From the NCBI RefSeq assembly GCF_053078305.1, contig NZ_CP166879.1: a DNA stretch of 64,000 nucleotides, one strand, 5' to 3'. The position numbers are program-made. This document shows positions 39,001 to 48,000 of this stretch, in pieces (the stretch's first letter is position 1; each line of letters opens with the position of its first letter).

Positions 39001-42000
39001 TCATTACATAAGAACGCCCACTGAGATCATCAAGTGTTGTACGAAATCCCCTCTGAATTTGCCGAAAACGTAAAGCTTCAGCTGTCACAGTAACAAACCG
39101 TAACATCGCTCTTGCCACAGACTGCGTCAGTGAGGTTCCGCTATGCGACATTAAATCCAGATAAGAAGTAGTCAACGAATGGCGATTTATCTGCATCCCC
39201 GTACGACTGATCCCCGCAACACGCTGTAACGTGGTATAGCTACTGTCACCAGACAATGTAACCGCAGTTGTACCAGGAAAGGTAACATGTGAAAAATCAG
39301 CAAAGCGATAAAAAACATTATTTGTCCTGTTAACAAATCCTGTCACATATAAATTATTTCGTTCAACAATAAGCCGTAGATTATTAAACCGCCCTTCCTC
39401 TGGATCTATCCCTCTGACATCAACTGCAAACAAATTATCCCCTGTGCCACTATCAATCATCAGTAAAGACGTACCTCCTGATGAAATAGTCTGTAATGGA
39501 GTACCTATTGCAGAGCGAATGACATTCAGCGAATCTACATACGTCTTTGCTGTCGAGAAATCTAAGGTAAATTCCTTCGCAACCACATTAACAGAAAAGA
39601 TAACAAAGAAAAAAGTTAGCACTCTAAAAATTATTATTTTCATATTACACAATACTCCTTGAGCGCCATACGATAACTATATTCTTGACATCCTCCACGC
39701 CCTGAAGGACGGCGTTTTACGGCGCACCGGATAAACGTAACAATAACGTAATGAAAATGATAATCATATTCAAAGAGAGCTGCAACCTTAACATATCTGG
39801 TCAGATCTCATGCGACTACTTGACGTACGTAGACAACAACATTTATTGATACACAGGATGTTACGGACATAAAAAAGCCAGCCACTGGGGGAGGCTGGCA
39901 AACTCGTAGAGCAAAATGCTGTTACGCAAACTTCGTTACAGGGTTATCCTGCAATACTTAAAATATACAATATTTAGAAAACTAATAGTGCCATATGCGA
40001 TTTTTAAGATTTTGTTATTAATTGCGGTCGCACCTTCCTTTCTGTGTACTTTCCGTATAACTAACAGGATTCCGGATACAAAAAACCCGCGCATCGGCGG
40101 GTTAAGCAGCGTGGCAATGTAACCACTCTTATCATGATATGAAGATTTTTACGATCGTAAACTATTTTTTCGCTGATAAAATACAGAGGTTCTCCCTCCC
40201 GGCAATTCACGCTCAACATACCGATCCATCTCAAGCCTCACTCCCAGCATCATCAGCATGCCTTCAACAATCCCCTCCGCTTTGTGAAGGCGTTTACCTA
40301 TACAGGTGTCAGAGCACCCATGTTTCCGTGCCAGCGCCATGAACGTCTCCCCCAACACGTAGTAATCAACCAGCAAGTCATGCAGATCGCGATTGTTCCG
40401 GTAAAGGCGGGCTATGCACCCGCATATCACCATCGCATCATCGTCACAGCACTGTGGACGTGATTTTACTTTTTCGGGGATCAGTCCCTTAAATCCGGCA
40501 GCAATGGGCGACCATGTAACATCCTCATAGTTATTTGCCGCCCATGCACCCCAGCGCTCAAGAACCTGCCGGATATCACGCATCAGTATCTTTACCCCAT
40601 CCGCGGTGAACCATAAGAACACCGTTGACGATAGCGTGTCTTTTCCCTTCTTTATCGCCAATGTATTTTCTGACTGTGGCACGATTGCAGTTCAGTATTC
40701 GGGCTACCTCTGTCTGATTTCCATATGCCTCAACGAGCATGTCAGGAATGGTTTTTACTGTGAACGTCATGCGGCCTCACTTCTGCTGTTTCGCAGGTCT
40801 TTAAGTTTCTGCTGATACTTCGCCTTGATCGCCCTGCATTCTTCGACAGTCCAGCGATGGCGGTTATGGTTCGATTCGATTTCGTCTACTGCTTCCTGCC
40901 CGATGCGGTTAATCAGTTCGACGCGATACGGAACGAGATTTCCGCTTTTGTACTGGTTACACACCACGCATTGCTTGTGGATATTGCGTTCATCAAATCT
41001 GAGTTGGGGAGCCGCAGCTGTTGTACGGTAATGACCTGCATCCCACTGAGCAGAATCGAATGTCCCGCATGAAACGCACGGCAAATTACGGTCTCGTTCC
41101 CTGATATAAGCATTCACGGCCTGCTGTGCCTGCTTAATCCAGTAACTGCGGGGCTGTAAGTCCCTTCTTCGCGCTTTAAGTTTGTCTGCCTGTTCTTTTG
41201 CAGAGGCTATGGCCTTTTCTTTTCTGACCAGTTCAAGTGCGCACTGACCGCAACAAACTTTCTGATACGAGCGAAACGGCACAAACGGGGTTCCGCACAC
41301 TTTGCATTTTTTAGGTTTACGTTGCTGCATCATCACCTCAGAAAAACGACAGCAGGCGGTTATTCAGTTCAGGGCTGTTTGAGCGCCCAAACACATGCTT
41401 TAACGCGGCATTAATCATTGCGTTGTAGCAACGTTCAAACTCATCCTGATCCATATTCGCGTAACTCAGGCTTTTTGCCCGATATCTCACCTCGCCTCTT
41501 ATGGTTGTGACCACATCATAGAACCCGGCAAGAATTGTCAGATTTTTACGAAACTCATCAAACTGCGTCGCTTCATCAGAGAATTCGTATCCAGCATGTT
41601 CAGCGCACCAGTACTGAAAGCAGAAATTAAGAAAAGCGAACATCTTCCGGTGAAAAGATGGGTTACGGGTAAGTTTTGCTTCCAGTGTATACAGCTCACC
41701 GTTTTTAAATTTTGCCAGTCGGGGTAAATCGCGCTCATACGCCGGTACAAATACGCCATTAGCCGCCTTGATCATCTCTATTTCCATCAGGCAGCCTCCG
41801 CTTTGAATTTGCGCGTCAGCACATGTTCACGGGCTTCACATCCCTGAATAAGCATGTCGTTAAAATCCGGCAAGTCAGGCCAGCGAATACTGACCTTCTC
41901 AACGTCATTACGACTCATGAGATTCTTATGCCCACATTTAAAGGCAGCCGCCAGACCTGCGCCGTGCGCATCATTGTCAGCAAATATAATCAGGTGATTA

Positions 42001-45000: not shown

Positions 45001-48000
45001 CTTCCTGGTACACTCTCGCGTACTCTGCTGCAATTTTTACCCTGGTGGTCGGGTCTAGCTGTAACAATTGCTCCTGTATCCAGTCCCGATCAGCATCACA
45101 GTACTGATCGGGCATAACCGTTTTGATTTGCCTGTTCACTCACACCTCCGATGGAGGGTTATCAGGCTGTTTGCCTTACATGAAGCGGAATACCATCTTC
45201 CATGTTTGGGTAGTCATGCGGGTTTAGTTCATGGGGAGTTACATTCCAGTCTGTAGCTTTTGCCCATTCAATGGCTTTCCGCCCCTGAGGCATGTATCTC
45301 CCTGTAATAACCCCACTGACAAATCCCTGAGAAACTCCAACAATCGCCGCAAAATCGGCTTGTCTGATAGAGCTTTGTCTCAAGTACTCGTCAAGAGTCA
45401 TAGAGATCCTCCCATTTCAATTTTTCGATATTAGCTTACCTGATTTAAATGTCAATAGGCTAGCTATTTGATAAATATTTGTGTTGCTAATAAAATCGGA
45501 GGCACTATGACGAAGAAAATTACGATTACTGACAAAGACATCCAGAATGCTGAACGACTGCGCAAAATCTGGGATGAAAAACGGAAACAGCTATCCCTCA
45601 GCCAGGAAAAAGCCGCAGATATCCTCGGCTTCAAAACGCAGGGGGCTGTTAGTCAGTTATTGAACGCAAAAATTGCGTTAAATACTGAAAATACCCTTAA
45701 GTTTGCGGCTTTATTACAGGTTCCTGCGGAAGAAATTAATCCAGATCTGAGTGATTTGTTACGCAGTATTCGTACGCACACACCGGGAAACAGGCGTAAC
45801 CTGTTCGAGAAATATTACGAATATCCATTACTCTCCTGCGTGCAGGCTGGCGCATTCTCAATGGATGATTTTTCGTACACCGCAAAGGATGCGATTAAGT
45901 GGATCTCCACCACCACAAAAGCCAGTGACAGGTCGTTCTGGCTGGAGGTCAAGGGGCATTCAATGACCGCGCCACAGGGAGGTAAACCCAGCTTCCCTGA
46001 AGGTATGCTGATACTTGTTGACCCTGAACGGGAAATCGAGGATGGCGATTTTTGCGTGGCCCGAATGAACGGCGATGAATTCACCTTCAAACGGTTCATT
46101 CGTGAGAGCGGTAAAGCGTACCTGGAGCCACTCAACCCACGATTCGACATGATTGAGTGTAACGAAAACTGCCAGTTTGTCGGAAAGGTCATAAAGTCGC
46201 AGTGGAATGATGAGACTTTTGATTGAACTCACAGGATGATATCAATAACCTTGCAGGGAGGCTATTTTATTTCCTCTTTCAGCGAAAAATCTCCGAGAAC
46301 CCTCGCCCAATGCGGGCGGGGAGCAGTCGCAATCAAGTGAGCCATAAATGAACAAAGACAAATCCTTGACACAACAAGTGGAAGAAATACTTAGCAAGCA
46401 AAAAGTTAGCGAGCAAGGAAAAATGATTCAATCATTAAAGAACATGGGCTTGATCAACAAGCCTGTTTTTACTTTGGCTTATGGACCAGATATTACAACC
46501 TGCCAAATGCACCAATAACAAAACCCGGCCTTGGTGCCGGGTTTTGTTTGCCTCCTGCTCGCCCCACCATTTACCAGTGCGCCGTAAATTCCCCATTCTT
46601 CGGCGGTGAGGATGTCAAAGACGAAGGGAACATTAAGCCCCTGAGTGATGGTTGACTTCTTTTTCCAGCGCCTTATTAACAAAGGCGTTCAGTGATAAAT
46701 CTTCTTCCATCGCCATTTCAGCGACCCGACGATGCAGTTCTGGATCAAGTCTGACGTTAAACACACCTTTAAACGGGGTATCAGGCTCCTTTCCATCCTC
46801 CACACAAGACTGTAAATACAGCTCAACCGATGTCTTAAACTCCTGTTCCAGTTCAGCTAATGTAGAAGCCTCATAAGTTACCAGGTCTCGAATAAACGCC
46901 AGTTTTCCGTACAGGATATTATTTTCAAAATCTGGTTCTACTGTACCTAAATATCCTTTATATTTTAGATGCTTCATAATACCCCAGCCTCTTTCAGATT
47001 CTGTTTAATCGCTTTCAGCGTTCCACCTTTAATATAACTTTCTGGATGTGGGCGATGCATTAATATGGTGTGGTTGATTTCAGCATTGAAAAACCGCACT
47101 CTTGAGCCCTGCATTTCCTTTTTGACATATCCCAGAGAGGAAAACAAAACGACCAGCTCATCCCATTCAAACGTTTTTTTACTGTTTAAAAACTTTTCCA
47201 GTAGCTTATCTGCTTTCCCCATACCCACATAATCTCATCTTCGCTACATTGCAACTAATTATAGTTACAGGCAGTGTTTTTGTCAAAAGCCACCAAGCCC
47301 GCTGGGTTCTCTTTGACTGTTCGCTGCTTTTCCTGGTGTTATCCGGGGGCTTTTCCCTCACGCCAAATCTCACACAGAGTAACCGGCCTCAGCGTCGGTT
47401 TTTCTTTGCGCATCCTCCATAACTCACCACCTGCATTATCCTCGCTTATATTTTTTACATAAATAAATTAATCTAAAAATCAATCACATAGATTAAAATT
47501 AAATCAAATTATTAGCCTTACTATTGACTATGATAAGTTGAGCTTATTATATTTTACCCAAGCCAGAAACATCGCGCCCTTACACAGGGCTACATAAATC
47601 AGTCGTACGGCGCGACTTAACCCGCCGCAAAATGCTCTTTAACAATCTGGAGCTTTACAGCGTCAATGACCTGTTTAGACCCCTACACGTAAACGTGCTG
47701 TATCATCGGGTGCGATCCGGTCGATGAGAGAGTATCCCCGCGCGAGAGCGAGAACGGCGTGAGAACGGGCAACACTGGCAGGAAGTTGGCGCTGACCAAT
47801 ACAGGGAATGTTTTGGGGTGCTGAGAGTGCCACCAAAGCGTTGCGTGAAATAGCGATGCCGTCCCAACCCTGTAGCAAAAGTAATGATTGGATACCATAA
47901 GACCAATCACAATCATTCTACGATTACCTATGCCGCACAAAGTTATTTTTTCAACACAATGTTCAAGTTTTCAACTGACTTCTTTATACTACCGCGTAGG

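Follow-up and report, generated by a model that had tools for sequence, protein, structure and literature searches.

Sequence comparison of the Eru1 replication unit in an Escherichia coli Shiga-toxin-1 prophage suggests a four-part core with a candidate origin element

Eru1 is a published replication unit of Shiga toxin (Stx) phages. It has been described by three genes, eru1A for a 506-amino-acid (aa) superfamily 2 (SF2) helicase, eru1B for a 323-aa Toprim protein and eru1C for a 149-aa DUF1367 protein (Llarena et al., 2021; PMC8044961). The Eru1 class takes in the phages of the O103:H25 (2006) and O104:H4 (2011) outbreaks, and lysogens of Eru1 phages were reported to be far less stable than those of lambda-type Stx phages (PMC8044961). 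Eru typing has been widened to Eru1-13 (PMC8951638). In these papers the unit consists of the three genes, and a 100-aa open reading frame (ORF), a 125-aa ORF and a non-coding element upstream of eru1A are left aside; neither origin mapping nor the small ORFs appear in PMC8044961 or PMC8951638. Literature searches on the Eru1 origin, on P13374 replication and on G-rich or R-loop phage origins returned nothing specific. Here we analyze the Eru1 module of an Escherichia coli Shiga-toxin-1 (Stx1) prophage in a 64-kb stretch of contig NZ_CP166879.1 (RefSeq assembly GCF_053078305.1). The whole stretch is called the window, and the sense strand of the module is its minus strand. The main subject is the non-coding gap between the 100-aa gene (p94) and the genes that follow, which is part of a conserved unit and a candidate origin of replication.

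An earlier reading of the window (the first-pass annotation) had described an early-right operon with a helicase-primase module instead of lambda-type O and P genes. The helicase, the primase, the two small ORFs and two palindromes all lie on the minus strand where that annotation had placed them (Table 1). Its span begins at 41338 and takes in a DUF1367 ORF that it did not mention. The run from the 125-aa ORF to the DUF1367 ORF overlaps end to start throughout, and NinG, NinH, Q and stx follow on the same strand. Pfam and PHROG scans of all ORFs in 40149-46226 found no lambda O or P homologue, and the non-lambda character of the module is thus confirmed. The label "early-right operon" is apt, since the module is flanked by cI-like and cro-like genes.

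Membership in Eru1 was defined as the presence of eru1A, eru1B and eru1C homologues of phage TL-2011c (NC_019442; locus L001, used as the Eru1 reference) at more than 80% identity and more than 80% coverage. By tblastn against TL-2011c, the helicase is 99% identical, the primase 96% and the DUF1367 protein 99%. As in other Eru1 phages, the module is without O and P and lies between a LexA-like repressor/cro pair and Q-stx. With protein identities of 96-99%, it is almost certainly the published Eru1 unit and was in this sense already known. It has the same three genes in the same place between repressor/cro and NinG-NinH-Q-stx as Eru1 of TL-2011c, P13374 and phi191, but the window phage carries stx1 and not stx2a. 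All 3802 bp of the 3.8-kb region have 98.7% nucleotide identity to about 98 Stx-phage records, Stx2a phages among them. Of 5426 complete E. coli genomes, 146 have the gap together with the 100-aa gene; all copies are chromosomal, and both small ORFs are annotated as "hypothetical". The module itself is therefore known and common, and what is added here is a sharper outline of its core and one specific origin candidate.

Related loci were gathered in three independent ways. By the first, 43 homologues of the 100-aa protein (46-98% identity) from Salmonella, Yersinia, Serratia, Kosakonia, Atlantibacter and other Enterobacterales were placed on their own contigs. By the second, a helicase-profile scan of IMG/VR gave 80 loci with helicase identities of 62-99%. 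By the third, IMG/VR was scanned for the exact non-coding 17-mer CATAGGTTAGGTAGATC, which also gave 80 loci, and neighboring genes were counted only where the flank sufficed. The total of 87 loci used below is made up of the helicase-anchored IMG/VR loci and the p94-anchored contigs having upstream sequence, with genes scored by tblastn. With the 80 motif-anchored loci, about 170 related prophages were compared.

Every locus of the first set has the order repressor, cro, ~90-aa protein, 190-430 bp of non-coding DNA, optional ORF, helicase and primase. The small protein lies upstream of the helicase in 87/87 loci having upstream sequence, and the primase lies downstream in all. Around exact CATAGGTTAGGTAGATC copies in IMG/VR, the helicase follows within 1.8 kb (66/66) and the small protein precedes within 500 nt (67/67); the 17-mer was confined to this module in its 80 matches. 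The cro family differs among loci (Cro, HTH_3/31, YdaS/P22_Cro). Core motifs of the non-coding element are near-invariant across loci whose flanking proteins are just ~50-67% identical. Homologues of the 125-aa protein occur in about 20 of the 87 loci, and DUF1367 is confined to E. coli and Salmonella loci and missing from other relatives. Co-inheritance across loci points to a four-part functional core, and in the compared sequences the invariant unit is the ~90-aa protein, the 190-430 bp non-coding element, the helicase and the primase. This argues that eru1C lies outside the conserved unit and that the 100-aa gene and the non-coding element lie inside it. The first-pass annotation had listed the two small proteins side by side as unknowns of the replication module; the 100-aa protein is universal among the related loci and the other belongs to an optional nuclease cassette, so they are not equivalent. 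The 100-aa gene is missing from the RefSeq annotation of TL-2011c, where a 530-bp unannotated stretch (NC_019442, 4633-5163) lies between cro and gp29, and this blank may be the reason for its absence from the Eru1 definition.

Some loci show variants of the layout. In L008 and L009 (8247-9217) and L012 (8336-8824) the primase or helicase is split or truncated, with a separate Toprim fragment and, in L009, a helicase in two ORFs. These are decaying chromosomal prophages, and the non-coding element is still kept in them. In Methylobacterium indicum pVL1_2 (L098, 2688-6421) a DUF1376 protein, 408 bp of non-coding DNA, a helicase of 40% identity, a Toprim primase and SSB follow one another; here the layout extends beyond Enterobacterales with another upstream protein and without the G-run described below. 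The idea that the p94 family is a relative of this DUF1376 protein was dropped, as hhalign showed no relation. The order p94, non-coding DNA, helicase and Toprim gene was also seen in NZ_CP076549.1 (L094) and about 10 other Klebsiella pneumoniae "plasmid" records of 37-42 kb in PLSDB. Phage DNA that was excised or episomal may have been assembled into separate replicons in these cases. As proof of autonomous replication the records are uninformative, since they are whole temperate-phage genomes.

The small protein of the core matches PHROG 852 (E=1e-43). Its GTG start at 45139 (100 aa) has a GGAGG Shine-Dalgarno sequence 5 nt upstream, and the conserved core of the family begins at an internal ATG at 45115 (92 aa, "MPDQY"). 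The start codon is left undecided, since the first site has the better Shine-Dalgarno sequence and the second marks the conserved core. AlphaFold2 (AF2) predicts three helices (pLDDT 77), the third of which is long and arginine-rich, with the pattern R/K-x-N-R-A-R-x-x-A-N-x-R-L-R and invariant residues N51, R54, A57, N58, R60, L61 and R62. No relative was found in Pfam, in sequence and profile searches of PDB or by Foldseek against PDB, and BFVD gave unnamed phage proteins only. Structure prediction assigned a fold class to the 125-aa protein (see below), and for the 100-aa protein it gave three helices with no PDB fold match.

The gap is organized in a conserved way. Aligned gaps share an order of features on the sense strand, which opens with one or two hairpins directly past the small-protein stop. 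Next comes a purine-rich tract whose invariant heart is two G-runs with 1-3 nt between them, GGGGGGTAAGGGGGG in most loci. Some lineages then have a short GC hairpin, its loop being GAA or GTAA, and the window has GGCCTAGGCC there. CCTTTTCCA (most loci), CATAGGTTAGGTAGATC and an A-run follow, and GTTCTTCCTGGAAAAGTGA closes the element near the next ribosome-binding site. In the window and in 83 of 86 related gaps the sense strand carries the paired G-run (G>=4 N1-3 G>=4), and the antisense strand carries it in none; the non-template strand downstream of the cro-operon promoter is thus G-rich, as in R-loop origins. Elsewhere in the same loci there are 20 matches in 1.39 Mb with both strands counted. 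A fuzzy 15-mer match to the G-run was found in 83/87 loci. GC skew at the purine-rich tract (-0.46 to -0.56) is the strongest in the region. CATAGGTTAGGTAGATC occurs at no more than 2 mismatches in 69 loci, 44-59 nt 3' of the G-run (typically ~48 nt downstream). Overall, the core motifs are enriched ~100-fold in gaps, on one strand only. The conserved signals of the gap are the paired G-run and CATAGGTTAGGTAGATC, which are the most widespread, and the sense-specific hairpins, and the first-pass annotation had named none of them.

Other searches of the gap were mostly negative. No part of it has a second copy within the 64-kb window. A promoter/terminator scan of 44000-45600 found only the cI and cro promoters and nothing in the gap, and a search of 44200-45500 against Rfam at permissive E-values returned nothing relevant. 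As sense RNA, the window gap folds better than shuffles (z = -3.1), and the G-rich and pyrimidine-rich blocks of the element are complementary to each other. GATC is 1.7-fold enriched in the elements of relatives, and the window has a single site; GATC clustering was dropped as a signal on these grounds. There are no tandem repeats in 40500-46500, and 41338-44640 has just two chance-level 15-nt direct pairs, so the helicase and primase genes hold no competing origin signature of iterons or tandem repeats.

The two palindromes of the first-pass annotation fared differently. GGCCTAGGCC alone is at chance level, since the window has 56 perfect 10-bp palindromes, or 0.17 expected per 197 bp. Folded into a hairpin, it gains nothing over shuffled sequences (z=+0.26). 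Several relatives carry small covarying GC hairpins at its position (AGTGC-GAA-GCACT, AGCGC-GAA-GCGCT, AGCCC-GAA-GGGCT and GTGCCC-GTAA-GGGCAC). The long palindrome, TTAATTGCGC...GTGCAATTAA with GAAATAATTTC at its center, is a real feature. It is the core of an imperfect 22+22-nt inverted repeat with 17 of 22 positions paired. When the surrounding 300 bp were dinucleotide-shuffled 300 times, pairing averaged 12.4 positions and peaked at 15. Within the core arms of the repeat a single pair is imperfect, a G.T wobble when read on the sense strand and a C.A mismatch on the other, and the predicted DNA fold is -8.8 kcal/mol for the sense and -6.3 kcal/mol for the antisense strand. TL-2011c has A>G in one arm and T>C in the other, and the two changes compensate each other.

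Only the E. coli/Salmonella lineage has this AT-rich palindrome, which stands there in place of the TTAAAGGT-loop hairpins of relatives. The TTAAAGGT-loop hairpins begin 4-45 nt past the p94 stop, the same position as the E. coli palindrome, and there are 98 in gaps compared with 26 weak look-alikes elsewhere in the loci. Their 8-pair stem is 85% paired over 42 distinct sequences. It shows 75 double-change cells compared with 28 in shuffles (0/500 as high), and slid-partner controls collapse, although the four loop-proximal pairs were a selection criterion. Many stem pairs are G.U, which restricts the hairpin to the sense strand. At one position the basic helix of p94 has His in 51/51 distinct hairpin-bearing loci, and the hairpin is present in 0/16 non-His variants. 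The association is confounded by physical adjacency and phylogeny and is given as a lead only.

On each side of the conserved core lie short motifs, palindromic or repeated, which fall into three classes, and no two classes occur together. GTACTAG...GTAC motifs (class A) were found in 58 loci, TAGACGTCTA-like motifs (class B) in 12, and GAAATAATT (class C) in the 7 E. coli/Salmonella loci. Both flanks change class together between near-identical modules, for example L030 and L039 or L046 and L061. No co-variation of repeat class was found with p94, the N- and C-terminal parts of the helicase, primase, cro or cI; in L061 and L046 the helicase C-terminal regions and the primases are identical and the helicase N-terminal regions 99% identical, and the repeat classes differ.

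The element can also be replaced as a whole. Four loci are without the G-run by fuzzy 15-mer match (L010, L017, L038 and L041). In L010 (6614-7159), L017 (2232-2888) and L038 (2954-3508) a 181-218-aa winged-helix ORF stands between the small protein and the helicase. The two that were scanned, from L010 and L038, match Pfam RepL at 21.5 and 27.7 bits, just over the 20.3 threshold, and also HTH_36; that of L038 further matches the PHROG families "replication initiation protein" and "DnaD-like". The winged-helix ORF comes with a different conserved non-coding block that has GGTCAAGGTCAAC repeats upstream. In L041 the slot holds a 276-aa protein (PHROG 36786). A RepL-like cassette thus replaces the G-run element while the three proteins stay, and this is our main argument that the element would serve initiation and not expression. 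The region around the upstream hairpins also differs in L014, which has direct GTGAAATWATTTCGC repeats and the GTGCCC-GTAA-GGGCAC hairpin instead of GGCCTAGGCC. These differences from the window indicate cassette exchange within the element.

From gene identities, co-occurrence, conservation, covariation, strand specificity and the RepL swap, we infer that the gap element may be the initiation region (ori) of the replicon, to which we give about an even chance, and we infer from the same observations how it might work past the step of transcription. Rightward early transcription from the cro promoter would cross the element, and the transcript or the displaced sense strand would fold into the conserved hairpins. 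With its paired G-run, the non-template strand would favor a persistent RNA-DNA hybrid or another unwound structure. The helicase, the primase and the small basic protein would assemble at the element, and DNA synthesis would start. Such transcription-linked initiation would resemble that of ColE1 RNA II or mitochondrial CSB II, the G-run forming an R-loop or hybrid and the RNA or displaced strand the hairpins; it is a tentative proposal that we regard as possible but doubtful. A broader and unlikely possibility is a new type of phage origin, in which a two-G-run R-loop like that of CSB II is combined with a helicase, a primase and a ~90-aa arginine-rich protein as a self-contained "phage primosome". 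Such a primosome would bypass O/P-type initiators and classic iterons. The first-pass annotation had suggested an origin or regulator sites in this intergenic region; a conserved single-copy element, linked to the helicase-primase genes in all related loci compared, was found there and is consistent with either role, and its role as an origin remains an interpretation.

Several observations weigh against an origin in the gap. The literature searched gives no mapped origin for any Eru1 phage. The gap is without an iteron array and has just two copies of the 9-mer GAAATAATT and one palindrome; iteron-type theta origins have at least three direct repeats of a 17-22-bp site, and the relatives have two flanking sites. 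No DnaA box was recognized in the gap by eye, without a formal scan. There is no strongly AT-rich unwinding region, and no 100-bp segment of 41338-45139 is below 42% GC. RNAalifold on 13 full gaps gave a weak consensus (-10 kcal/mol) with little covariation beyond the hairpins, and global RNA structure is therefore not claimed. An intramolecular quadruplex is unlikely in the window because its G-run has just two long runs. Since repeat class co-varies with no tested protein, a cognate binding protein cannot be named. An RNA regulatory element would account for hairpins restricted to the sense strand as well as a pre-primer would. SF2 helicases are not known to serve as replicative ring helicases, and host DnaB may still be needed.

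The element could instead be an RNA-level regulator of the early-right operon, with the origin elsewhere, which is possible but in our view doubtful. It might be a leader for processing, stability or translation of the helicase-primase mRNA, or an antitermination site, either put-like and protein-independent or nut/boxB-like and dependent on p94. Hairpin covariation and G.U pairs that are valid on the transcribed strand only, hairpins that begin just past the p94 stop, an arginine-rich helix in p94, the His-hairpin association and complementary G-rich and pyrimidine-rich blocks all speak for such an RNA element. Eru1 phages were also reported to be without N (PMC8044961), and put-type antitermination has been invoked for other N-less lambdoid phages (PMC12315714). 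However, the element tracks the helicase and primase and not the immunity and antitermination genes, whose families vary freely. Nut and put sites have copies in both early operons, but TTAAAGGT hairpins are confined to the p94-helicase gap, and no left-operon copy was found in the window or 3.5-6 kb upstream in related loci. A swap for a RepL-type cassette with p94, helicase and primase kept is hard to explain by regulation of expression, Rfam gave no match, and the His-hairpin link is weakened by adjacency and phylogeny.

Initiation at the gap could also take place on a conventional double-stranded origin, with no role for transcription or R-loops. In that case p94, the C-terminal domain of the helicase or a host factor would bind the flanking repeats and melt the DNA directly, much as UL9 does at oriS, and the E. 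coli sites would be the GAAATAATT motifs and the palindrome. We consider this unlikely. Three exclusive repeat classes that switch together on both flanks of near-identical modules are consistent with it, as are the conserved zinc ribbon and unmatched C-terminal domain of the helicase and the GATC enrichment of the element. Yet no tested phage protein tracks the repeat class (as in L061 and L046), the wobble pairs give the hairpins a strand specificity that would not be expected of pure duplex recognition, and the G-run strand bias (83 vs 0) is explained at least equally by a transcription-linked structure. That the palindromes are incidental, by chance or as a simple 3'-end hairpin of the cro-p94 message, and the gap a mere spacer is highly improbable. 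The chance-level frequency of GGCCTAGGCC, the lack of a promoter- or terminator-like site in the gap and the restriction of the AT-rich palindrome to the E. coli/Salmonella lineage are compatible with a spacer, but the conservation of near-invariant, one-strand core motifs at ~100-fold enrichment already contradicts it. The long palindrome also beats all 300 shuffles, and its pairing is kept by compensatory change.

Table 1. Features of the Eru1 module and its surroundings in the window.
Feature	Position	Strand	Remarks
stx1A/B ORFs	38416-39652	-	
DUF1367 ORF, 149 aa ("Eru1C")	41338-41787	-	Pfam DUF1367; PHROG 319
Primase, 323 aa (Eru1B)	41787-42758	-	Zinc ribbon, DUF7146 and Toprim; start overlaps helicase stop
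SF2 DEAH helicase, 506 aa (Eru1A)	42748-44268	-	ResIII, DEAD, Helicase_C; PHROG 16
125-aa ORF	44262-44639	-	PD-(D/E)XK-fold nuclease-like; stop overlaps helicase start
Non-coding gap, 197 bp	44640-44836		No ORF
GTTTCTGGTGAAATAATTATC	44664-44684	-	Second copy of lineage-specific GAAATAATT; counterpart of relatives' GTTCTTCCTGGAAAAGTGA block
GAAATAATT copies (class C repeat)	44667-44675 and 44820-44828		
CATAGGTTAGGTAGATC	44704-44720	-	Most conserved motif of element; two TAGGT pentamers and one GATC
GGCCTAGGCC, perfect 10-bp palindrome	44733-44742		Only copy in window; sequence not conserved
Purine-rich tract	44767-44798	-	Holds paired G-run GGGGGTAAGGGGG (G5TAAG5), 44772-44784; G-rich on non-template strand
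22+22-nt imperfect inverted repeat	44801-44822 / 44824-44845	-	Overlaps stop codon of 100-aa ORF
100-aa ORF ("p94")	44837-45139	-	GTG start; PHROG 852, function unassigned
cro-like HTH gene	45162-45401	-	Pfam/PHROG scan
S24/HTH repressor (cI-like)	45468-46226	+	Divergent from module
HicB antitoxin, 114 aa	46633-46977	-	Pfam HicB 7e-20
HicA toxin, 84 aa	46974-47228	-	Pfam HicA_toxin 1e-11

The 125-aa protein has few close homologues. A word-indexed protein search gave 5 near-identical matches, and an exhaustive search gave 36 distant ones. In the alignment E71-x-D73, R78, S81 and K84 are invariant and D57 is nearly invariant. AF2 predicts, at pLDDT 93, the secondary-structure order H-H-E-E-E-H-E of a PD-(D/E)XK core fold. 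The best Foldseek matches are Bax1, NucS/EndoMS and VRR-NUC (E from 3e-4), with SfsA and R2 endonuclease also found, and family members have weak Pfam matches to MTES_1575, Hjc, Mrr_cat and BamHI. Compared with the catalytic D...(D/E)-x-K motif, the protein has D instead of the usual K at the third position. BamHI has E at this position. K84 or R78 on the next helix may stand in for the missing K.

The slot of the 125-aa gene is variable. In Yersinia and other loci it is occupied by an HNH-NUMOD4 endonuclease, most loci have no gene there, and the IMG/VR contig L014 (3121-3507) has an allele 38% identical to the 125-aa protein inside a module whose helicase is 99% identical. Presence and absence, HNH alternatives and the divergent L014 allele indicate an accessory cassette, which is probably homing-type or selfish and not required for replication. 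Free-standing phage homing endonucleases include the HNH I-HmuI/NUMOD type and the T4 seg/mob genes. As with them, unrelated nuclease folds alternate with an empty site beside a conserved gene; the difference is that the PD-(D/E)XK family of the 125-aa gene has no characterized member. The nuclease could alternatively be a working partner of the helicase, nicking or processing the origin or stalled forks in the style of XPB-Bax1 or Hel308/Hjc, but we think this quite improbable. In archaeal XPB-Bax1, as here, a small PD-(D/E)XK gene lies just upstream of, and overlaps, an XPB-like SF2 helicase gene. The top structural matches of the 125-aa protein are the Bax1 chains of XPB-Bax1 complexes, the helicase matches XPB/Rad25 by sequence, and acidic and basic residues kept in distant homologues suggest an active enzyme. 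However, the match is to a generic PD-(D/E)XK domain only (TM ~0.5, E ~3e-4), which covers ~110 of the 375-480 residues of Bax1. Bax1 has an N-terminal helicase-binding domain and an obligatory partnership, but the 125-aa protein has no counterpart of that XPB-binding domain and the partner is optional in this family, with the slot empty in most related modules and filled by an HNH-NUMOD4 homing-type gene in others. Even the overlap with the helicase start is common to the slot: all ORFs found there share one stop position, which overlaps the helicase ATG, and the overlap is thus explained by the context of the helicase start.

The helicase and primase have recognizable domains. In the helicase GSGKT (residues 34-38) and DEAH (121-124) are invariant in 7 homologues, as expected of SF2, and ResIII, DEAD and Helicase_C are all above Pfam thresholds. 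The zinc finger of the first-pass annotation is supported, with four cysteines of a CxxC-x10-CxxC ribbon (C378, C381, C392 and C395) invariant in the same 7 homologues. The best sequence matches in PDB were RadD, which ranked first (9e-17, residues 234-346 only, in the second RecA domain), SauUSI, XPB/Rad25 and T4 UvsW, and the conserved C-terminal domain had no match. The primase matches PF08273 (9e-15, residues 28-63), PF23639, PF13362 (3e-11, residues 215-305) and PHROG 510 DNA primase (1e-138). It thus has the N-terminal zinc ribbon and Toprim domain of a DnaG/T7 gp4-type primase, and no solved homologue was found by sequence. The DUF1367 protein matches PHROG 319 NinB/Orf (4e-62) and is probably the NinB/Orf-like first gene of the nin region and not part of the replication core.

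The early-left region of the prophage carries other genes of note. A HicA/HicB toxin-antitoxin pair lies just beyond the repressor gene (Table 1). Further on there is an AntA/AntB-type antirepressor gene (48886-49524, plus strand; Pfam AntA 7e-27), and beside it (48068-48619, plus strand) a 183-aa ORF without a Pfam match, whose product has a signal-peptide-like N-terminus.

In several outbreak strains of high virulence, stx is carried by Eru1 phages, and toxin output scales with phage replication. The present comparison narrows the search for the origin to ~200 bp and a four-part core, with the paired G-run and the TAGGT motif singled out. In the revised unit the small protein and the non-coding element are in, and DUF1367 and the 125-aa nuclease are out, which bears on Eru typing and on replication targeting. 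If the reading as a new origin is true, the origin would be the point at which the copy number of Stx phages and the toxin dose are controlled, including in the O104:H4 (2011) and O103:H25 (2006) phages of this class.

The lambda origin lies in gene O and is activated by transcription. The Eru1 module occupies the same slot as lambda O/P and ori-lambda, past the cro/cII position and before nin, and likewise depends on the rightward early operon. It differs from lambda in having no O/P homologues, no in-gene array of at least four iterons and no AT-rich block, and the Eru1 phage brings its own helicase and primase, whereas lambda hijacks DnaB through P. P1 RepL/oriL and RepL-type plasmid initiators resemble the slot of three related loci, which has a RepL/HTH_36-like ORF and short repeats. 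This ORF is not in the window, and its Pfam scores are just above threshold.

PriA and UvsW act on R-loops and D-loops. The Eru1A helicase shares the SF2 core with RadD, PriA and T4 UvsW and has a Cys4 zinc element as in RadD and PriA, but its match to RadD is limited to residues 234-346 and its C-terminal domain is unmatched. In herpes simplex virus, UL9 is an SF2 origin-binding helicase that acts at oriS together with the UL5/8/52 helicase-primase. Eru1 is similar in that an SF2 helicase with an extra C-terminal domain is encoded beside a primase and, in the candidate origin, inverted sites flank a hairpin-capable core. Homology to UL9 is limited to the SF2 core, and the repeat class does not co-vary with the Eru1A helicase.

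Transcript-primed origins include ColE1 RNA II, mitochondrial CSB II (G6AG8) and T4 oriF/oriG. A structured transcript and two long non-template G-runs downstream of a promoter stabilize RNA-DNA hybrids. The Eru1 element is alike in lying downstream of a promoter, in its predicted hairpinned transcript and in its two long non-template G-runs. It differs from these origins in having no sequence similarity to them and no antisense regulator. It also differs in its setting, since the phage's own helicase and primase are encoded after the element and would take the place of Pol I and PriA.

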